Shown here: piece after piece, positions 1 to 8,712 of the stretch
Layout of the letters: every line of letters begins with the position of its first letter
Numbering within the stretch: position 1 is the stretch's first letter
Source: a virus
Lineage: Duplodnaviria; Heunggongvirae; Uroviricota; Caudoviricetes
Virus record (IMG/VR): IMGVR_UViG_2778261639_000012
Strand: one strand, 5' to 3'
Length of the DNA stretch: 8,712 bases
Notes under the pieces: generated by a model
The model's database searches: none
The model's input: the letters and a program-made list of their open reading frames with translations, nothing else
What the model was told of the DNA's origin: nothing
Program-made: the position numbers and the translations under genes

Positions 1-167
1 CACTTCGCCTCTATCAGGCATGATGCTGAATTTCTGAATCCCATAGCATCTGGCTGTTCTCCGGTACTGGTTACAGCAACAAAGCGGTCATGAAAGCAAA
101 CCTTGAACCCGTTGCGCTTAAGGAACTTGTACGCAATCTGACAGAGTTCGTGGTGTGTTAACGCCAT
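1..167 (-). CDS. Partial CDS (5' end present, 3' end beyond window); putative PD-(D/E)xK-like nuclease-fold protein
   Basis: ATG at 167..165 preceded by AAAGGAG 6 nt upstream; frame open to window edge. N-terminus MALTHHELCQIAYKFLKRNGFKVCFHDRFVAVTSTGEQPDAMGFRNSASCLIEAK contains a D...E-x-K arrangement (PDAMGF...LIEAK) typical of PD-(D/E)xK nucleases. Family call is by eye only. Confidence 0.5.
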   Translation of the reverse strand, partial: MALTHHELCQIAYKFLKRNGFKVCFHDRFVAVTSTGEQPDAMGFRNSASCLIEAK

Positions 168-168
168 A

Positions 169-654
169 TCACTCTCCTTTGATGCGAATGCCTGTTGCAA
201 TGCTGTTTATGATGCTGTCAGTGCATGGGGTAGAAAGCTGGGCATCTCCAGCAATTTTCATGACCTCAACATCTGCATATCGAATACCGAGGTGTATCAG
301 ACCGGCTATGCCTGACTTAAGCCGAGCATTTTCCATAAATAGAACTTTTGCCCGCTGTTTTTCTGCTTCAAGCTCAACGCGCAGCTTCCCTACCGTTAGC
401 GCAATATCCTCGTTCTCCTGATCGCGGCTTTTGATGTATTGCAGGTTTCTTTCCCGTTCATCCAGCAGTGCCAGCACGGTTTCTGGTCCGGTCAGAAATT
501 TGAAGGCGTTGAGCGCATCAATATCCACACCGTAATCTTTAAGTTCCTGTTCACTTAACAAGTCATCATCAGCTGGCAACATTAACAGGCGTTCCATTGC
601 TGGAATTGCACGTTCCGCCACCTCACGCAGTGCCTGGTAATTAATTTCGCTCAC
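169..654 (-). CDS. Ead/Ea22-like family phage protein (161 aa)
   Basis: GTG start at 654 with AAGGAGG 6 nt upstream; N-terminus MSEINYQALREVAERA nearly identical to the paralog at 1720..2421; central coiled-coil segment; start overlaps upstream stop (GTGA). Confidence 0.7.
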   Translation of the reverse strand: MSEINYQALREVAERAIPAMERLLMLPADDDLLSEQELKDYGVDIDALNAFKFLTGPETVLALLDERERNLQYIKSRDQENEDIALTVGKLRVELEAEKQRAKVLFMENARLKSGIAGLIHLGIRYADVEVMKIAGDAQLSTPCTDSIINSIATGIRIKGE

Positions 655-1304
655 TGGTTGCCTCCTTTGCGAAGCTCAGCGGCGAAGGCTACTGCGTGAT
701 CATGATGTTCAAGCGTGTATGCACACTCCGCAAACATCTCCACGCCCTGCGCCCGGACTTCAGCCAGGAAAGCATCGGTGGCTGGCGTTTCCCGTGAACG
801 GTAAGACCAAACAATGTCGTCTGTTTCACTGGGTTCTTCATGAGAGCAATTTGGGCAGACAGCAGTACAACCAGCATGATCTTCTATGAGCATCTTCAGC
901 CACGAGTTCTCCTCCGCCAGCGTCACGCGACTGGCCTCCAGTTCTGCTACGCGCTGTTTTGCAGCATCCAGTTCAATCGACAATTTTTCCAACTGCTCTT
1001 TATGCTTTTTATATTCCTGATATGCGTGCCAAGACTGACCTTTGCGCACACTATCAGTGATATCAGCAACCTGCTCTGGTGTTAGCGTGGTCAGTGGCTG
1101 TGCTGGGAAAATAAGCACTTTCCCGGAATCCCAATCAAAACCAGCATGAATTGACTGAACCTCAACTGAAGGTGTTGAACCAATGCTGCCAGGCGAATGA
1201 ACAACGATCGTTACATCCATATCGCGACGATGGCTGTGGTTGTTGGACAAAATACGATTCAACAAAATACGATTCACCAACTCAGAAAATTTGGAGAATT
1301 TCAT
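651..1304 (-). CDS. Ead/Ea22-like family phage protein (217 aa; start uncertain)
   Basis: C-terminal SETPATDAFLAEVRAQG motif shared with the paralog at 1720..2421 (SETPATDAFLAEIRAEA); coiled-coil segment. ATG at 1304 has GAGG about 8 nt upstream and sits 8 nt after the upstream stop. Internal Met (MDVTIVV) is an alternative start without a Shine-Dalgarno. Confidence 0.6.
   Translation of the reverse strand: MKFSKFSELVNRILLNRILSNNHSHRRDMDVTIVVHSPGSIGSTPSVEVQSIHAGFDWDSGKVLIFPAQPLTTLTPEQVADITDSVRKGQSWHAYQEYKKHKEQLEKLSIELDAAKQRVAELEASRVTLAEENSWLKMLIEDHAGCTAVCPNCSHEEPSETDDIVWSYRSRETPATDAFLAEVRAQGVEMFAECAYTLEHHDHAVAFAAELRKGGNQ
1247..1276. repeat. Perfect 15-bp tandem direct repeat x2 (ACAAAATACGATTCA)
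   Basis: Read directly: 1247-1261 and 1262-1276 are identical. In frame within the N-terminal region of CDS 651..1304, encoding a duplicated LNRIL pentapeptide. Confidence 0.9.
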
Positions 1305-1312
1305 GCGGAGCC

Positions 1313-1723
1313 TCAGTATGTAAAATAGACAGTTGCCACGCCGTTATAGTGATCAAACGATACGGCATTTACTTCGTAGCTGGCAGGGAGCTTCGATCCG
1401 AGAACGTATCCGGGCCACGTTTTCCATGGAATTTCTCTGCGCTCACTATCGCCATATACCGTACATCCCAGAGAGCCTACAGCTTCATTAGAACGCGTGC
1501 CGCACGTTATGAATCCCAGATTTTGCTTACTGCTCTTAATGGTGATTGGGTGAACGCTGGCTGATGCATTAGCAGCACGCTGTGCCTGTTGGTTTGCGAT
1601 ATTCGCAGAGTTCGCAGCAGCTACAGCAGCCGTAGTCGCGGCGGTAGAGGCTACAATAGCTGCTGAAGCATGCACTTGTTGGATATTCACCAACAATGCC
1701 GCGACAAAAATCATCTTCTTCAC
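1313..1723 (-). CDS. Putative secreted/periplasmic protein with N-terminal signal peptide (136 aa)
   Basis: GTG start at 1723 with AAAGGAG 7 nt upstream, overlapping upstream stop (GTGA). N-terminus MKKMIFVAALLVNIQQVHA is a classic Sec signal peptide (AxA cleavage-like site), followed by an Ala/Asn/Gln-rich low-complexity linker and a C-terminal domain with two Cys. No lipobox. Confidence 0.6.
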   Translation of the reverse strand: MKKMIFVAALLVNIQQVHASAAIVASTAATTAAVAAANSANIANQQAQRAANASASVHPITIKSSKQNLGFITCGTRSNEAVGSLGCTVYGDSERREIPWKTWPGYVLGSKLPASYEVNAVSFDHYNGVATVYFTY

Positions 1724-2421
1724 TTGTCAGCTCCTTTGCGAATCTGTTCAGCCCATTCTTCAAGGGATTTCTCCGCATATTCACCGGACAGGCCATCAAT
1801 CGGGTACGGTTCATTAGCCAACTCTTCTTTCGCTGACAGAATCATGCGCGTAACGTCGAAAACTTCACGCAAAGACTTATTGATAAATCCGTGATTGAAC
1901 GCAGCAGCAAGACGGCTGGCGGTATAGTTAATCCCCTCGTTGCGTGCTTCCGCACGAATTTCAGCCAGAAAAGCATCGGTAGCTGGAGTTTCGCTGTGGT
2001 GTAGGGCATCGTTGATAATCATTGCAGCAACTCCGGCCTGCCCTGCATCCGTGACCGACACATGATCAAGAGTTACAGCCATTGCGTGTTTCAGCCCAGC
2101 GTTCTCTGCCACCAGAGCCGCGAGCTTAGTCTCAAGCGGTGCTATTCGGCACATAGCATCAATATTTGTGTCCTCCAGGCGCTTAATTTCACCAAGTAGC
2201 TCCAGTGCAACCTTTGGGTTGAATGCGGCAATATAACGAGCGTTGTTCTCTGCGTTTTTCAGTCCATCAAAGCCGGTCCATTTGATAACGTCTTCACATC
2301 GTTTATCACCGGGCGTATGCACCGCATACGTACCAGTACCCGGCGAAATAAATGCGACCCATTCGCCCTGTGTTGCCTGTTTTGCTATCTCACGCAGTGC
2401 CCGGTAATTAATTTCGCTCAC
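1720..2421 (-). CDS. Ead/Ea22-like family phage protein (233 aa from GTG; ORF track extends to 2457)
   Basis: GTG at 2421 preceded by AAGGAGG 6 nt upstream, giving N-terminus (M)SEINYRALREIAKQ, paralogous to 169..654. Contains the SETPATDAFLAE motif. The longer ORF-track start at 2457 lacks a Shine-Dalgarno and would overlap the upstream gene by 40 nt. Confidence 0.7.
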   Translation of the reverse strand: MSEINYRALREIAKQATQGEWVAFISPGTGTYAVHTPGDKRCEDVIKWTGFDGLKNAENNARYIAAFNPKVALELLGEIKRLEDTNIDAMCRIAPLETKLAALVAENAGLKHAMAVTLDHVSVTDAGQAGVAAMIINDALHHSETPATDAFLAEIRAEARNEGINYTASRLAAAFNHGFINKSLREVFDVTRMILSAKEELANEPYPIDGLSGEYAEKSLEEWAEQIRKGADK

Positions 2422-2657
2422 TGGCTGCCTCCTTTGCGGAGTTGCGCTTCGATGCACGAAAAAAAAGACTCCCGAGTATGACTGTTAAGAGCTGGTGCGA
2501 ACGCCGCGTTAAGAACGGCAGCATCACAGCCGTCATCAATATAGAGCGCAATTTTTTTCTCCAGGCGCGCTTTGGCTTCCTGCAACTGCATACCCCGGCA
2601 CGCACGCGGGATATAATCAGCAATTTGAGCGATAGCTTTTTCGTTCTGTTTAAACAT
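2418..2657 (-). CDS. Hypothetical phage protein (79 aa)
   Basis: ATG at 2657 with GAGGTGA 4-5 nt upstream; 8-nt overlap (ATGTTTAA) with the upstream gene; C-terminal ...RKGGSQ encoded by the Shine-Dalgarno of the next gene. Confidence 0.5.
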   Translation of the reverse strand: MFKQNEKAIAQIADYIPRACRGMQLQEAKARLEKKIALYIDDGCDAAVLNAAFAPALNSHTRESFFSCIEAQLRKGGSQ

Positions 2658-2853
2658 GCTTCACCTCGATAGGCTTGATGGTGTCTAACAGCAGTCGACG
2701 GCGCGTATTTTCTGCAAAGTGGCGGCGTCCGGTATCTTTGTGGTAAAACTCATTTTTGCCGACGACCCACATCCGCTCTGTTTGGTGCAGTTTTTTTACC
2801 TGCGGCCCGTCTTTGGTGATCACGGTGCCGGTATGGGTTTTTACGATTGTCAT
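2650..2853 (-). CDS. Hypothetical phage protein (67 aa)
   Basis: ATG at 2853 with GAGG about 9 nt upstream; translationally coupled to the downstream 79-aa gene. No recognisable motif. Confidence 0.45.
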   Translation of the reverse strand: MTIVKTHTGTVITKDGPQVKKLHQTERMWVVGKNEFYHKDTGRRHFAENTRRRLLLDTIKPIEVKHV

Positions 2854-2936
2854 GCCACTACCTCTTCGAACAGATGAACGAGACAGGCCGATGCTCGTCC
2901 ACCTGAAAAACTGACGATTTGATGCATACTCACGGT

Positions 2937-3227
2937 TTATTCCTGAATGCGCTTAAACTCGATTACCCACACCCAGGGATTAGCGTTCCAGCTTTCTTCA
3001 CCATAGATGGATTCCCACAGGTGCTGGAACGCAACCTTGGCCATTGCGAAATCCCTCTTGGGAGTAAGGAATGTTCCCGGGTGATCAGGAAGCAAACTTC
3101 CAGCAGGCGGAACGCCCTCAGCCCTTGCATCGCATTCGCTGATATCGTTCAACCGTTCAACGCGCACGTTGGTAATTTCCAACAGAATGGTGATGCCCAT
3201 CGCGGCATGTGAATTGATGGACGCCAC
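2937..3227 (-). CDS. ASCH-domain protein, C-terminal fragment (96-aa ORF; probably the 3' part of a frameshifted gene)
   Basis: C-terminus SIYGEESWNANPWVWVIEFKRI resembles the terminal beta-strand signature of ASCH proteins (compare E. coli YqfB ...DIYPGQTQFYVIEFK, recalled from memory). Starts only at a GTG with no Shine-Dalgarno, inside the 3' end of ORF 3149..3664. Confidence 0.45.
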   Translation of the reverse strand: MASINSHAAMGITILLEITNVRVERLNDISECDARAEGVPPAGSLLPDHPGTFLTPKRDFAMAKVAFQHLWESIYGEESWNANPWVWVIEFKRIQE

Positions 3228-3664
3228 CCACCATCAAACTTTTCATTCACAGTGTGAGGTTTCCAGTCGGCATCATCGGGTATCGACCATAAGCCGTAAT
3301 CACCAGGTTTTTGCTCACAACTGGCCCGATAAATCCTTGCTGCGTTCTTCTCATCGCCACGACAAAGGTTGTCGTTCCAGTCCACACTGCAACCATCTTC
3401 ATTGCCTAATATCGTCCATGTTTCACGAACCCAAATTCGATCGCCGACGATACCAAAGGGGCAATTGAAAACACTGCTTACACCATCAGCCCCGTACCAC
3501 TGAAAACCTGCACCAATTTCCCTAACCATCACTGGTGCTTCTGGACCAACTTCCGCAGGCTGATTTTTCATTATCCGCCGCGTCTGCGTTTTCCTTCCTT
3601 CGAGGATGGCTCGGACCATCTCATCGTTGAAAATCATGCCGCGCTCTTTCACTTCGCCTTTCAT
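3149..3664 (-). CDS. ASCH-domain protein, N-terminal part (171-aa ORF)
   Basis: ATG at 3664 with AAGGGGGA just upstream; N-terminal FNDEMVRAILEGRKTQTRR matches the ASCH GxKxxExR-type motif. ORF ends at 3149 in a different frame from the 96-aa ORF that carries the matching C-terminal ASCH strand. Confidence 0.6.
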   Translation of the reverse strand: MKGEVKERGMIFNDEMVRAILEGRKTQTRRIMKNQPAEVGPEAPVMVREIGAGFQWYGADGVSSVFNCPFGIVGDRIWVRETWTILGNEDGCSVDWNDNLCRGDEKNAARIYRASCEQKPGDYGLWSIPDDADWKPHTVNEKFDGGWRPSIHMPRWASPFCWKLPTCALNG

Positions 3665-3673
3665 GCATCCCCC

Positions 3674-3760
3674 TTACCCATGCGCGACGATGCCGCCAAA
3701 AGTGATAGAGAACAGCCAGAAATAGATCGCGGCCATAATGATTTTGAATGCCGTGTTCAT
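3674..3760 (-). CDS. Small hydrophobic peptide (28 aa, MNTAFKIIMAAIYFWLFSITFGGIVAHG), predicted single transmembrane helix
   Basis: Translated by hand. ATG at 3760 preceded by AGGAG with 8-nt spacing; TAA stop at 3676..3674, 9 nt before the ASCH gene start. Below the ORF-track length cutoff. Almost entirely hydrophobic/aromatic. Confidence 0.5.
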   Translation of the reverse strand: MNTAFKIIMAAIYFWLFSITFGGIVAHG

Positions 3761-3787
3761 ATTTTCAGCTCCTGTGATTGATTGGAT

Positions 3788-3820
3788 ACATGCCGCGCCT
3801 TGCGGCATGTTTTTATTTTC
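3788..3820 (+). terminator. Intrinsic-terminator-like hairpin oriented on the plus strand
   Basis: Stem ACATGCCGC (3788-3796), loop GCCTT, stem GCGGCATGT (3802-3810), then TTTTATTTTC (3811-3820). On the minus strand the hairpin is not followed by a U-tract. Confidence 0.5.
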
Positions 3821-3829
3821 ACTTTCTCT

Positions 3830-3859
3830 GTTTTAAAAATCAAGATTTATTAGAGCAAT
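3830..3859. repeat. 30-bp element GTTTTAAAAAT-N6-TTATTAGAGCAAT, copy A
   Basis: 26/30 identical to 5971-6000. Abuts the stop codon (3859-3861) of the HAD gene. Confidence 0.8.
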
Positions 3860-4365
3860 TATTGTTGATGGAGAAGCGCGTTTTCATACTCCCTGACCAT
3901 TAACGTAAGTACGCCGTGACTCCTGAAAACACGCGCCACGTCAATCTTATCTTCCAGCGCGAACGCAATTTTACTTAGACCAATTTTCTTCAGGAGATCA
4001 ATCTTTGCTGGACCGTCATTTCTGTCATCGGTGGCAGGACGCATAGATAGCAAAGGCTCAGTCCCATTTGTTACGTGCTTACGCAACCAGGCTCGTGTTT
4101 TATCCCTGGCTATCTCACAGCGCCCGGTTACAAACCAGAGGGTGTAAATGCCGGACAACTGGCGCACCATATCAATAACTGGAGTGATGGGAGCATCAGT
4201 GTCACAGGCAAGGTTAAACTCGTTCCAGTGCTCTGTTAATGCACCTTTGCCAGGTGGTGGAAGTAAATGCAGCCTGTCTTCCGTTGCCTCTGATATCGTC
4301 CCATCAATATCTACTATGACGATGTACGGACGTTCCTGGTGTGCGTGTTTATTGAAAATACTCAA
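3859..4365 (-). CDS. HAD-superfamily phosphatase-like protein (168 aa)
   Basis: Motif I DIDGT (IVIVDIDGTI) near the N-terminus, Thr motif II (WFVTGR), downstream Lys and acidic (EDKID) motifs consistent with the HAD fold; resembles phage polynucleotide 3'-phosphatase/nucleotidase domains. Only start is TTG at 4365, with GAGGAGG about 4 nt upstream. Confidence 0.6.
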   Translation of the reverse strand: MSIFNKHAHQERPYIVIVDIDGTISEATEDRLHLLPPPGKGALTEHWNEFNLACDTDAPITPVIDMVRQLSGIYTLWFVTGRCEIARDKTRAWLRKHVTNGTEPLLSMRPATDDRNDGPAKIDLLKKIGLSKIAFALEDKIDVARVFRSHGVLTLMVREYENALLHQQ

Positions 4366-4382
4366 ATGCCCTCCTCATTGGA

Positions 4383-4418
4383 CGAAAAAAATGCTGGTGG
4401 GAGCACTCCACCAGCATT
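4383..4418 (-). terminator. Rho-independent terminator (minus strand)
   Basis: 11-bp perfect stem AATGCTGGTGG (4390-4400) / CCACCAGCATT (4408-4418), 7-nt loop, followed on the minus strand by a run of about 7 T. Lies between the 420-aa gene and the HAD gene. Confidence 0.65.
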
Positions 4419-4437
4419 AAAAGTGACACTGTAACTA

Positions 4438-5700
4438 TCAGCGAACGTAAATAGTGCCGCCGTTCTCTTTTTCCCATGCATCGCTACGTGCATAGCAAAC
4501 ATCGAGAAGTCTTCTTGCCGCAGTTTCCTCTAAACCCAATTCGACAACCAACTGCTCATGACGGCGGGTAACCACATCAAACAGGGTATGCAGCCCTTTA
4601 GTTGCCAGATCATCAATGAATTCCGGTTCGAACGGCAGCTCTGCATCTGCCAACATAACCTCTTGCGCCCACTCAACTCGACGGACCAATTCCGGGCGGC
4701 GGCTTTCCATCTCTTTACAGATCAATTCATGGAAGAACTCTACCCAACCTTCCGGCTGGAACTCGCGGAAAATTGCCAACGGCTGGAAGTTTGGCATCAA
4801 CCATTCGTTGATTCGGATATCAATGGCATAGCCCATGTCGCAGCAGAACTGATAAGCAAAGTCCAGCTTAGACACGATATAAGGACGCTCGTTATTGAAC
4901 TCTTTAGGCGATGAGATCCCATAAGCCAGGAGGCGCGGGAAGAAGGATATTTGCCCTAACGTCGGATGAAGTTTGCTTGCAGGGAAACGGCGCTCAGTAA
5001 TGCCATACATTTCCTTCTTGAGCGTCGCAAATTTGGCATTCTCATTAACCAGCGCGGTAACCTCTGCTTTTTTATTAGCAAATGCCACGCGCGCTTCGCT
5101 TGCATCTTTAATAGTTTTTTTGAGCTGTTGGTTAAGGTCGGCGACCTGCTTACGCAGTTCCTGTCGCTCGCTTTTAGCTTTGTTATAGCGTTTCTCAAGG
5201 TTAAAAGGATCAAGTTTCATGATCTCTTTATATTGAGATTTTAGCGTTGAAATCTGTGAGTTCCGCAGTTCAACCATCGCGGTCATTTCATTGAGTTTTG
5301 TTTCCAGCTCAATGCTTATACGTTCGGCATTATCAGCACGCTGGTTGGCGTCATGCGTCGCATCGTCGATCGCGTCCTGTTGCTGGCGTTTCAAATGTTC
5401 AATTTGCAGCTGAAGCTCTTCAATTTCTTTATCCTTCAGACCGAGATCCAACTGCATATTTTCAGCTGCATCTACCAGGGAGTTATGGCTATCAGCTTCT
5501 GCGTTATAAACATCAATAAGCTGTGCGTGAAGCATCTCCGCTGACTGAACCGCATTATCAAAAAAACGCGCTGTGAGGTCATCACAACTAACGCGGCGTT
5601 GCGCGGCCCGGATGTTCTGGATAATGGCCGGGATACCGGCATTCAGGACGTCAGGGATAGATACATTTTCGATTGATTGGTTTTGTGCTGAAGTGATCAT
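4438..5700 (-). CDS. Hypothetical phage protein, N-terminal coiled coil plus C-terminal globular domain of unknown function (420 aa)
   Basis: Long ORF; residues about 80-250 are heptad-rich and charged (EIEELQLQIEHLKRQQQ..., ELRKQVADLNQQLKK); C-terminal 170 aa rich in aromatics with no recognisable catalytic motif. Start ATG at 5700 is 1 nt after the stop of the upstream 72-aa gene. Confidence 0.7.
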   Translation of the reverse strand: MITSAQNQSIENVSIPDVLNAGIPAIIQNIRAAQRRVSCDDLTARFFDNAVQSAEMLHAQLIDVYNAEADSHNSLVDAAENMQLDLGLKDKEIEELQLQIEHLKRQQQDAIDDATHDANQRADNAERISIELETKLNEMTAMVELRNSQISTLKSQYKEIMKLDPFNLEKRYNKAKSERQELRKQVADLNQQLKKTIKDASEARVAFANKKAEVTALVNENAKFATLKKEMYGITERRFPASKLHPTLGQISFFPRLLAYGISSPKEFNNERPYIVSKLDFAYQFCCDMGYAIDIRINEWLMPNFQPLAIFREFQPEGWVEFFHELICKEMESRRPELVRRVEWAQEVMLADAELPFEPEFIDDLATKGLHTLFDVVTRRHEQLVVELGLEETAARRLLDVCYARSDAWEKENGGTIYVR

Positions 5701-5701
5701 T

Positions 5702-5920
5702 TCAAAGTTCCGTATTAGCTTGTGCTTCGGTCATTTTTCCTAAGTATGAAGGAGGAAGGACTACGCAATTTGTATCCAGTCCCTCACCTATGGCAGCCTG
5801 TAAAATTCTGGCTAAGGTGAGTCTCTTGTTGCGATACCTGGTGATGACATGCCTGATACCGCCGGTCGGCGTAACAAAGGCGATCAGCCAGTAGTGATAT
5901 TTCCGTCGGAATGGCCACAT
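5702..5920 (-). CDS. Hypothetical small protein (72 aa)
   Basis: ATG at 5920 with AAGGTG 5 nt upstream; first gene after terminator T2. Basic, Arg-rich (MWPFRRKYHYWLIAFVTPTGGIRHVITRYRNKR...). Function unknown. Confidence 0.55.
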   Translation of the reverse strand: MWPFRRKYHYWLIAFVTPTGGIRHVITRYRNKRLTLARILQAAIGEGLDTNCVVLPPSYLGKMTEAQANTEL

Positions 5921-5932
5921 AGTGCACCTTGT

Positions 5933-6002
5933 ATATTGCTCTAATAAAAAACGTGATGAGTGTACATCACGTTTTAAAAATATGGAATTATTAGAGCAAT
6001 AT
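5933..6002. repeat. 15-bp perfect inverted repeat arms (ATATTGCTCTAATAA / TTATTAGAGCAATAT) flanking terminator T2; right arm is part of 30-bp element copy B (5971-6000)
   Basis: Read directly: 5933-5947 is the reverse complement of 5988-6002. 5971-6000 (GTTTTAAAAATATGGAATTATTAGAGCAAT) matches 3830-3859 at 26/30 positions. Confidence 0.8.
5943..5975 (-). terminator. Rho-independent terminator (mainly minus strand) nested within a 15-bp inverted repeat
   Basis: Stem AAAACGTGATG (5948-5958) / CATCACGTTTT (5965-5975), loop AGTGTA; on the minus strand followed by TTTTTTATT. Lies downstream of the stop of CDS 6002..6703. Confidence 0.65.
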
Positions 6003-6703
6003 TATTCTGATTCTCGCTCAAAAAATGAGCTGATAAGGGGAAGCCAATCCTCTGACACTTCGCGAGGTCGCGGTTTGCCGTGGAAAAAGATTATTCGGCA
6101 GTCTTTTGGTAATGCCCCATTCCCCCTGGAGTAACGCGCGCTCGCATATTTTGAACCAGGTTCCACAACATCGGCCTTGTAACTTACAAACCATCCTGGA
6201 TACAGATCCTGAAATGCTGGTGTATCATCGCCCATAACCTTTCGTAAGAACCCCTGGTCACCCCAACACTCAGTAGTGACACAACGAGAAATCCAACCTT
6301 CCGGATCTTGCCAGAATGAACTCCAGATATGCGCTTTAACACTATTTGGTATCCACAAGGCACCGCTGCCACGATATTGTGGATGGTAAAAATCCCTAAG
6401 CATGGTGAAGCTGGTTGGTGGATGCTCTAGGATTGGGCGTATATCACCGGCAATAACCGTGTCCAAATCCAGATAGAACAGATCATCGGTTATATCCGGT
6501 CGGAACAACTCGATTTTCGCCCACCAGCCACGGCACTTTTGCCACTGGTTGATCAATGGGACAACTTTGACGCCAGGTACATGTAAACGCTTCAGGTCTG
6601 TCAGGCAAATAATTTCATAGCCTTTTGGCAGTTGATTAACCAGCCACTGCACATCGGAAGCGTTATAGTCACCACCAGAGCGAAAAACTAAAGCAATCTT
6701 CAT
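6002..6703 (-). CDS. Putative GT-A-fold (GT8-like) glycosyltransferase with DxD motif (233 aa)
   Basis: N-terminal beta-strand [12 protein letters not shown] and DxD context [20 protein letters not shown] resemble retaining GT8 enzymes (compare LgtC ...VLYLDIDVLVRD..., recalled from memory). ATG at 6703 overlaps the phosphatase stop (ATGA) with AAGGTGA upstream. Confidence 0.5.
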
Positions 6704-7392
6704 GCTGCACCATCACCTTTCACTTTCATCAATGTCAGGTTTCCGCAAAATACGGCACCAGTGTCGATATACTGCTGATTCCAGAATGTCTTCGGGCTTT
6801 TCACCGGAGTGTGACCAAAGATAAAACGATCTGCGCCCGAAATTTCGCCACCAATATCATCCATCGAATCACTGATACGCTCGCGCGCCCAGACAACGTT
6901 GAAAAGCGGCACCTCCTTACCGAATTGGTATTCATTATCCGGATAGTCGGCATGGGCTATAACGATAGTTTCTTGCCCGGTGTTCAACTCAATGATATAG
7001 GGCAGACGCTTTACCAGCTCCACCAGCGCCCAGGCTAATATTTCCTGATCAGTGTCCAGCATGAAGAACCATTGTCCGCCATTCATTAGCCAGTTATTCA
7101 CGTTGCCATCTGGACTTAACGCATCAATCATCAGCCGCTCATGGTTCCCCATCACTGCCCTGAACCAGGGCATCTGCAATAGTTCCAGACATTCGACATT
7201 TTCAGTACCGCGATCGATAAGGTCGCCGACCGATATCAGTAAATCCTGCGCCGGGTCAAAATCCACACGATGGAGTTCGGACATCAGTCTGGTGTAGCAA
7301 CCATGCAGATCACCAACAACCCAGACATTCCTGTATTTGGTACCGTCGATACGGTGATAAATTGTGGGTGCCATCATGTATTCTTCAGCCAT
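6700..7392 (-). CDS. Serine/threonine protein phosphatase, lambda PPase / PrpA-PrpB family (calcineurin-like metallophosphoesterase)
   Basis: Conserved motifs GDLHG, GDLIDRG, GNHE and close overall resemblance to phage lambda ORF221 phosphatase ([21 protein letters not shown]...FRAVMGNHE...[14 protein letters not shown]). Real start may be the internal ATG at 7377 or 7374, matching the lambda PPase N-terminus and removing the overlap with the upstream gene. Confidence 0.85.
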
Positions 7393-8000
7393 TCTTTAAG
7401 AGTCATCTGCGGAATACCTCCCATTTTCCCGCATGAAACAACGTCAATCCGTTCACGCGCAGACTGGAATAACAAAGGCAGGTGACTTAGATTTTTTGGC
7501 GTGCCGCCGGAGTGAACGCGTGGTTCTTGTGTAGCGTCAACGCCCACCAGGGCGACATGTTTGAATCCGATATGGAAAGCCAGGTTCAGAGCGCCATATG
7601 CACTATTGCCGCTGGCAATTTCATTCTCATCTTCGCAAAGTCCGAAATGTGCGGACCAGCGCCACGCCCACCACTCGGGAGAATTCGTATTTTTTGGCTC
7701 CATGCCACGTTCAGCCACACGACGGAAGCACAGAACGCCGTCTCTGACTTCACGTTCTTTAACATCGGGTAGTGCCATGCAATAACAAACACCACGGCGA
7801 CGGCGGCCACGACCAACGCGCCGCATATTGTCTGGCGATGGATCAAGTGTGAAAAAATAAGAAGCGCGGTTCAGCCAGTCGATGGCCCCATTGACCGCTA
7901 TAATCGGCACTCCGCGCGGCGCAACAAAGTTTGCGGCGCTTGGGCCACTGCCGACGATAATAACGCGATCACTGCCTCTAAATTTATTCTTGGGAAACAT
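7374..8000 (-). CDS. DUF115/MAF-like (GT42 sialyltransferase-like / MptE-like) Rossmann-fold protein, paralog B (208 aa)
   Basis: N-terminal [14 protein letters not shown] ... [11 protein letters not shown] and later [26 protein letters not shown] match the GxGPS / G-S-x-L-x-LA-x-G-(x)n-LxGxD pattern I associate with PF01973-type proteins. ATG at 8000 with AGGAG upstream. Confidence 0.6.
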
Positions 8001-8527
8001 TGAATTGCACTGCTCCTACTTGCATTCAAAATATGTAAATCTGCGTGTTTTTTGCGGGTATCCAGGAACTGCTGTTGCCATTTTGAAATAGACACCTGCG
8101 TTGGATTCCGTAGGGCTTGAGGGTGCGCGCCATGCCAATGAAGGCCGTTTTGCAGAGAACAGTCATAGCCGACTAATACCACTACTTCAGCCCCTGATTC
8201 AGCAGCCAGACTGATAGCCTGCGCGCCGCTATTTACCCCTTCCGCCGGTCCACAATATCGCCTGTACTCCAACGAAAATGATTTCGCCGCCGCCAGGTTG
8301 GCTGTCACTTTGCGGAATCTCCCTCCCGGTATGGTGGATCCGTATTGCTTCCACCATGACAAATCACCGGCGTATAAGGCATAAATGTCATCGAACATCT
8401 GCCAGGAATTGTTAACCGCGATGATTGAACAGCCAGTTTTTTCTATAGCAGCACAGTCCTCACGAGTGAGTGACGGACCGCTACCGACACAAAAAACAGT
8501 CCTAGTCGCCCTGGGTGGTATGTTCAT
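7898..8527 (-). CDS. DUF115/MAF-like Rossmann-fold protein, paralog A (209 aa from ATG 8527; ORF track extends to 8560)
   Basis: TVFCVGSGPSLT ... IIAVNNSW and NSGAQAISLAAESGAEVVVLVGYDCS parallel paralog B. Start at 8527 chosen because it places GxGPS at the same distance from the N-terminus as in paralog B and shortens the overlap with the upstream gene; weak Shine-Dalgarno either way. Confidence 0.55.
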   Translation of the reverse strand: MNIPPRATRTVFCVGSGPSLTREDCAAIEKTGCSIIAVNNSWQMFDDIYALYAGDLSWWKQYGSTIPGGRFRKVTANLAAAKSFSLEYRRYCGPAEGVNSGAQAISLAAESGAEVVVLVGYDCSLQNGLHWHGAHPQALRNPTQVSISKWQQQFLDTRKKHADLHILNASRSSAIQCFPRINLEAVIALLSSAVAQAPQTLLRRAECRL

Positions 8528-8712
8528 TCTCAGCTGCAAATTCAGCCTCCAGGCGAGCATTCATTTCAGCGATTACAGGGTCCACTACAGCATCTGTTTC
8601 CTGTTCATTACGCGGCATGATCGATGCCAGCGATTCATAATTAGCCTTGGATGACACGACTATTCTCCCGATGTTAATGTGCGCTATATCAAATGGCGCA
8701 TATGTACTAATT
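8502..8712 (-). CDS. Partial CDS (3' end only; 5' end beyond window), hypothetical protein
   Basis: Open frame from the window edge to TAG at 8504..8502 (...VVDPVIAEMNARLEAEFAAENEHTTQGD*); overlaps the start of the next gene. No motif recognised. Confidence 0.45.
   Translation of the reverse strand, partial: ISTYAPFDIAHINIGRIVVSSKANYESLASIMPRNEQETDAVVDPVIAEMNARLEAEFAAENEHTTQGD

Follow-up and report, generated by a model that had tools for sequence, protein, structure and literature searches.

The operators Op86 and Op88 have been on the map of bacteriophage P1 since the late 1980s. In the P1 record (AF234172), Op88, Op86a and Op86b are labelled as binding features of the "phage repressor C1", with a note on Op86a that it "controls expression of pmgR and pmgS"; in the P7 record (AF503408), these sites carry the names Op(hea), Op(sht[a]) and Op(sht[b]). 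For experimental binding of C1 at these sites, the sources are the GenBank annotation and the entries M25414 and X98146 to which it refers, and a literature search on the names Op86 and Op88 yielded no relevant paper. The consensus of C1 operators has been given as ATTGCTCTAATAAATTT (PMC8546580). Downstream of Op86, pmgR is essential to virion completion, at head completion (PMC9024508), and both pmgR and pmgS are listed as extremely conserved in P1-like phage-plasmids (PMC9603915).

The DNA analyzed here, a stretch of 8,712 nucleotides that we refer to as the window, was compared with phage records by megablast. Phage P1 (AF234172/NC_005856) matched positions 2971-8712 with 98.3% identity, vB_EcoM-Ro157c2YLVW matched 84% of the window with 97.6% identity, and P7 matched 61% of it with 98% identity; positions 1-2971 are replaced relative to P1. 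The closest plasmid found was the IncY plasmid pCFSAN004177G_03 (CP012494.1), which showed 99.3% identity over positions 1719-8712. This plasmid encodes a C1 protein identical to P1 C1.100 at 282 of 283 positions as well as Coi and Lpa; therefore, the cognate repressor is present in the lineage, with c1 located outside the window. Every long ORF of the window is carried by the minus strand. Judged by these matches, the window is part of a P1-like phage-plasmid.

A repeat search of the window returned a 30-nt direct repeat (3830-3859 and 5971-6000) with 87% identity (26/30), as described in the first-pass annotation. The gapped pattern of this element, ATTGCTCTAATAA-N6-ATTTTTAAAAC on the minus strand, had exactly two matches in the window and was found in none of 200 dinucleotide-preserving shuffles. 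Read in gene direction, each copy starts with ATTGCTCTAATAA, the core of a 17-bp asymmetric C1 operator. The copies had been said to abut the stop codons of two genes, which was borne out: the pap stop overlaps copy 1 by one base (the first base of Op88 doubles as the last base of the pap TAA codon), and Op86a follows the pmgQ stop codon at a distance of 1 nt. This closeness to stop codons reflects the compact genome, where the promoter-operator of an early operon begins as soon as the gene before it has ended. The features of the locus are collected in Table 1.

Table 1. Operators, predicted promoters, hairpins and genes around the two copies of the 30-bp element (window coordinates)
Feature	Position	Strand	Remarks
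28-aa hydrophobic leader ORF (MNTAFKIIMAAIYFWLFSITFGGIVAHG)	3674..3760	-	Unannotated; AGGAG ribosome-binding site; first ORF of the Op88 unit
GC-rich hairpin, 10-bp stem	3788..3810	.	Scan and fold; T-run follows on the plus strand
P1pmgT, predicted sigma-70 promoter	3815..3843	-	AF234172 84309-84337; -35 TTGATT 3843-3838, -10 GAAAAT 3820-3815
P2pmgT, predicted sigma-70 promoter	3830..3858	-	AF234172 84294-84322, identical sequence; -35 TTGCTC 3858-3853 inside Op88, 17-bp spacer, -10 TAAAAC 3835-3830
C1 operator Op88 (OpmgT), ATTGCTCTAATAAATCT	3843..3859	-	AF234172 protein_bind 84293-84309, identical sequence
pap, HAD/PNKP-type phosphatase	3859..4365	-	Stop abuts Op88; Pfam HAD_PNKP, E = 3.6e-11
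Strong pmgS terminator	4390-4418		Generic terminator scan
pmgS	4438-5700	-	Operon under Op86a/b
pmgR	5702-5920	-	Operon under Op86a/b
C1 operator Op86b (OpmgRb), ATTGCTCTAATAAAAAA	5935..5951	+	AF234172 82201-82217, identical; inverted relative to Op86a
Intrinsic-terminator-like hairpin (AAAACGUGAUG / CAUCACGUUUU)	5948..5975	-	Fold; 11-bp stem, 6-nt loop; U-run after
PpmgR, predicted sigma-70 promoter	5971..5999	-	AF234172 82153-82181, identical sequence; -35 TTGCTC 5999-5994 inside Op86a, -10 TAAAAC 5976-5971
C1 operator Op86a (OpmgRa), ATTGCTCTAATAATTCC	5984..6000	-	AF234172 82152-82168, identical sequence
pmgQ (hdmD in P7), 233 aa	6002..6703	-	Last gene of upstream operon; stop abuts Op86a
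Op83-like (Oppp) C1 operator, first 12 nt	8701..8712	+	Cut at window end; TATGTACTAATT vs P1 CATGCACTAATT

Alignment showed the window to match P1 base for base across the three operators and both 30-bp modules. A search of the window for the consensus ATTGCTCTAATAAATTT with up to three mismatches detected only the three operators (one mismatch in Op88, three each in Op86a and Op86b), compared to 0.04 expected matches, and three matches were reached in 0 of 200 shuffles. AF234172 lists 20 monovalent C1 operators; the 17 that lie outside the window were used to train a position weight matrix, with which we also scored the window. Op88, Op86a and Op86b scored 24.3, 20.2 and 19.9 bits, respectively, values comparable to those of bona fide operators (mostly 15 to 27 bits), and the next-best nonoperator 17-mer of the window scored 10.4 bits (window mean, -19.5; standard deviation, 7.6). 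By sequence identity, the three sites are the P1 C1 repressor operators Op88, Op86a and Op86b, orthologous to the P1 and P7 sites, and they mark the window as a piece of a C1-immune P1-type phage-plasmid. The proposal that the element is a protein-binding site is thus supported by its identity with annotated operators, but the predicted protein is C1 and not IHF or Fis. The element is real, does not arise by chance and belongs to a regulatory system that has already been described; it does not change the known biology.

The limits of the 30-bp element coincide with those of P2pmgT and PpmgR, two promoters that AF234172 annotates as predicted. Both have weak hexamers: TTGCTC agrees with the -35 consensus at 3 of 6 positions, and TAAAAC agrees with the -10 consensus at 4 of 6 and lacks the T at position 6. 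A generic sigma-70 scan of the window did not flag P2pmgT, P1pmgT or PpmgR. No transcription start-site data for these promoters were found in the P1 literature searched, and the text of the P1vir RNA-seq paper is silent on these operons. The first-pass annotation had considered minus-strand promoter cores, and at the level of published prediction this was correct for TTGATT...GAAAAT, which is the annotated P1pmgT; the second suggested pair, TTCCAT...TACACT, is unannotated and constitutes a plausible alternative promoter. Across the 20 P1 operators, positions 19 to 25 counted from the operator start are T-rich, with TA frequently following near the position of a -10. When P1 operators were compared over 30 bp, Op86a and Op88 (26/30) tied for the highest similarity, and several other pairs reached 24 to 25 of 30 (among them Op88/Op99e and Op68/Op99e). 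Therefore, the 30-bp element reflects the general build of C1-controlled promoters and not a separate motif.

Taken on sequence grounds, the element is very probably an early promoter that C1 can repress in a P1-type phage-plasmid. The initial idea, a T4-type MotA box or a phage-RNA-polymerase promoter, was dropped when the window proved to be P1. P1 itself offers another promoter class, as the elements could be Lpa-dependent late promoters instead of C1-controlled early ones. Late expression would fit the label "putative morphogenetic function" of the downstream genes and the involvement of pmgR in head completion (PMC9024508). In most annotated P1 late promoters, however, a -22 box resembling AAGTGACTT precedes a TAnnnT -10 by 4 nt, and AF234172 annotates no late promoter at these positions. 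A scan built from all annotated P1 late promoters (a AAGTGACTT-like box with up to two mismatches and a TAnnnT -10) found no match on either strand of the window. We consequently rejected an Lpa-type promoter, the probability of which we regard as negligible.

The C1-repressible promoter that we favor would work as follows. In gene direction, the module consists of a 17-bp asymmetric C1 operator that holds the predicted -35 TTGCTC, a T-rich spacer and the predicted -10 TAAAAC. In the lysogen, where the prophage is a plasmid, operator-bound C1, tightened by the corepressor Lxc, would occlude the -35 and keep the downstream operon silent. Upon inactivation of C1 (by Coi, by Ant1/2 or, for c1.100, by heat), host sigma-70 RNA polymerase would initiate transcription. 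Copy 1, at Op88, would then drive the leader ORF followed by a variable pmgT-type cassette, and copy 2, at Op86a, would drive pmgR-pmgS. The start of PpmgR is expected about 7 nt downstream of the -10, near 5964, which would place the second C1 site, Op86b, just past the start point at about +13 to +30. We infer C1 occupancy in this replicon, the choice of the -10, the start site and escape from termination (see below); Op86b would presumably act either as a roadblock or through cooperative or looped binding. The sites place pmgR-pmgS as well as the variable cassette (positions 1-3664) among the putative C1-repressed genes, which would be switched on at induction.

A hairpin had been reported beside each copy of the element, and both are present. 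The one at 5948-5975 lies 27 nt past the pmgQ stop codon, has a stem with only four G-C pairs and is followed by UUAUUAG, the last four stem bases also being U. With its stable stem-loop, immediate U-run and location after a stop codon, it has the features of a predicted Rho-independent terminator. A simple terminator scan did not flag it, possibly, at a guess, because A/T pairing prolongs the stem so that it includes part of the T-run. Situated between Op86a and Op86b, this hairpin is probably where transcription of the preceding operon, pmgN-pmgQ, comes to an end, and read-through RNA coming from pmgQ would contain the full stem and the U-run and terminate. The -10 of PpmgR overlaps the 5′ arm of the hairpin; therefore, transcripts initiated at PpmgR would not carry the complete stem and would avoid termination. 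The other hairpin, at 3788-3810, is terminator-like on the plus strand, where the scan flagged it. On the gene strand no U-run follows its stem-loop, which falls within the leader of the Op88 transcript and would presumably act as a leader hairpin.

The terminator hairpin at Op86 is enclosed by 15-nt arms (5933-5947 and 5988-6002) that are perfectly complementary in the window, as stated previously, but the right arm is not confined to the 30-bp element: it exceeds it by two bases and reaches 6002, inside the pmgQ stop codon. Perfect inversion is limited to the 13 bp of ATTGCTCTAATAA in P1 and P7. The extension to 15 bp is due to one substitution, which lies just outside Op86b and is private to the window among the three genomes aligned. 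Together with the hairpin, the arms form a very stable composite stem on both strands (-29.8 and -28.8 kcal/mol, z = -8.9 and -6.9). This stability and the gene-strand U-run behind the inner stem would be expected if arms and inner hairpin formed an RNA-level 3′ stem-loop that terminates or stabilizes the pmgQ transcript, with only an incidental likeness to 3830-3859. The arms, however, correspond exactly to ATTGCTCTAATAA, the core that all operators share, and most other P1 operators have this core unpaired, which makes a purely RNA-structural role of the arms unlikely. Moreover, the perfection beyond 13 bp stems from the single private substitution, no inverted counterpart accompanies the copy at Op88, and a terminator function of the inner hairpin fits the C1-promoter explanation, of which it forms a part. 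We therefore consider a mainly RNA-level role of the arms and inner hairpin highly improbable.

The arrangement could also go beyond a C1-repressible promoter followed by a second operator. Op86a, the terminator hairpin and Op86b might form a composite device in which C1, bound at two inverted sites flanking the terminator, gates both initiation and upstream read-through, for instance by looping or as a roadblock. In a related manner, the T-rich tract at positions 19 to 25 of most C1 operators might extend the site functionally, for instance for Lxc or for DNA bending, beyond being a mere promoter spacer. We see a small chance for such an extended function, which we regard as unlikely.

The identity of the flanking genes was addressed with Pfam. 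Among six flanking proteins, the only match was HAD_PNKP in Pap, which agrees with the earlier call of a HAD phosphatase; PmgQ, PmgR, a 171-aa protein and the 28-aa ORF had no match. The designation of the 233-aa protein as a glycosyltransferase accordingly lacks Pfam support and is merely the RefSeq product name of pmgQ. The 28-aa ORF is identical in P1 and differs by one base in P7. On the minus strand, the operon order starts with Op83, pmgN to pmgQ and the hairpin at 5948-5975, continues with Op86a/PpmgR/Op86b, pmgR-pmgS, the terminator at 4390-4418 and pap, and ends with Op88 and the promoters P1pmgT and P2pmgT, the leader hairpin, the 28-aa ORF and the variable cassette.

The variability of this cassette bears on the proposal that cassettes are shuffled by recombination at the elements, which would then be boundaries conserved as short stretches of homology for illegitimate or homologous exchange. 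Op88 heads the most variable region among P1-like elements (pmgT to humD constitute "variable region 8" [PMC9603915]), the replaced part of the window (1-2971) lies downstream of it, and fragments of the Op88 leader adjoin hsd loci in IncF plasmids. We examined the end points of alignments in a spread sample of 60 of 1,032 matching plasmid records. Recurrent ends were located at positions 3670, 3113 and 2943 but not within 3830-3859. They lie at least 170 bp downstream of Op88, and the one at 3670 directly follows the 28-aa ORF; the joint falls after the conserved leader and small ORF and not on the operator. Since the sampled alignment ends lie outside the operator, the reading as a recombination joint is not supported. 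It is further opposed by Op86, as the downstream genes pmgR and pmgS are extremely conserved (PMC9603915) and its surroundings are conserved in the three aligned genomes, and by the distribution of the 17-bp motif, which occurs at about 20 sites in P1, mostly inside stable regions. A role of the elements as joints is thus very unlikely.

The C1-repressible early promoters proposed here can be compared with three described arrangements. The closest are Op88 and Op86a/b of P1 (AF234172) and their P7 equivalents (AF503408), which share with the window the sequence, the flanking genes pap, pmgQ, pmgR and pmgS, the orientation and the spacing. Relative to P1, the window differs by the one substitution outside Op86b (an inverted repeat of 15 instead of 13 bp) and by ea22/ead-like genes that replace pmgT-V after Op88 and are nearer to the "hea" operon of P7. 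The bivalent P1 operators Op72ab (ban) and Op99ab (c1) resemble Op86 in having two inverted C1 sites per promoter; however, their 17-mers overlap in a 28-bp unit, whereas Op86a and Op86b are 32 bp apart, enclose a terminator hairpin and are each annotated as monovalent. Finally, the locus would resemble OR and OL of phage lambda in that a prophage repressor covers the -35/-10 region of early lytic promoters. In lambda, the operators are dimer sites of palindromic sequence that lie together in a single immunity region, whereas the C1 sites are asymmetric 17-mers scattered over about 20 places in the genome.

Immediately behind the pap stop codon lies the C1 repressor operator Op88 (OpmgT), and the leader of its transcript was found to contain a small ORF for a hydrophobic peptide of 28 aa, with the ATG of the next gene located 9 nt past its stop codon. 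In an alignment, the P1 copy of this ORF was identical and the P7 copy differed by a single base. The ORF carries no annotation in the P1 GenBank record AF234172, and a Pfam search with its product returned no match.

Features of the window
Feature	Position	Strand	Details
Op83-like C1 operator, cut by window end	8701-8712	+	TATGTACTAATT
28-aa hydrophobic ORF	3674-3760	-	MNTAFKIIMAAIYFWLFSITFGGIVAHG; in Op88 transcript leader; AGGAG ribosome-binding site
Strong intrinsic terminator (terminator scan)	4390-4418	-	between pmgS and pap; 11-bp stem, 6 G-C pairs, T-run
80-nt direct repeat	606-685 and 2373-2452		83% identity
Third, shorter copy of the 80-nt repeat	1720-1745		

Behind most of the C1 operators annotated in P1, positions 19 to 25 from the operator start form a T-rich tract (0.5 to 1.0 bit per position; loci L001 and L003 to L005), which often precedes a TA at the -10 position. 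Thus, the conserved unit exceeds the 17-bp consensus. By our own count, 20 monovalent C1 sites are annotated in AF234172, compared to the 22 given for P1 in PMC8546580. Scoring with the operator matrix yielded 18.5 bits each, within the range of the annotated operators, for two unannotated sites of this record (1485-1501, ATTGCTATAATTATTTG; 17166-17182, ATTGCCCTAATGTATTT). The 18-nt Omat (Op2b; AF234172 2628-2645) is annotated on the minus strand; it is the plus strand that carries its consensus-like sequence, CATGCACTAATAAATAT. The site at the window end, which resembles Op83 (Oppp), the operator ahead of the pmgN-pmgQ operon, differs from P1 by two substitutions (P1, CATGCACTAATT); the nearest plasmid (CP012494.1) reads TATGCACTAATT at this site. 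In P1 (AF234172), pap lacks an annotated promoter, and a terminator was detected upstream of the gene (see the table).

Similarity searches revealed that the region downstream of Op88 (window 1-3670) is mosaic. Similarity to P1 ends at 2971, while that to other P1-like genomes ends at 3670, 3113, or 3018, and positions 1-2400 match ea22/ead-type genes from Stx and other lambdoid phages. Among P1-like phage-plasmids, the counterpart of this cassette is "variable region 8" (PMC9603915). The copies of the 80-nt repeat cover junctions of ea22/ead-like genes, comprising the stop/start overlap and a ribosome-binding site.

An 84-bp fragment of the 28-aa ORF (window 3670-3753) was recovered with 98.8% identity from plasmids (15 of 60 sampled rows), where it is likewise unannotated. 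Its surroundings were examined in one of these 15 rows, an IncF conjugative plasmid (L007), in which the type I restriction gene hsdR is followed directly by the fragment (L007 3501-3584) and then by IS1. The fragment near hsdR looks like a P1 remnant; similarity to the EcoDXXI/R124 hsd flanks is already recorded in the P1 GenBank notes (AF234172).
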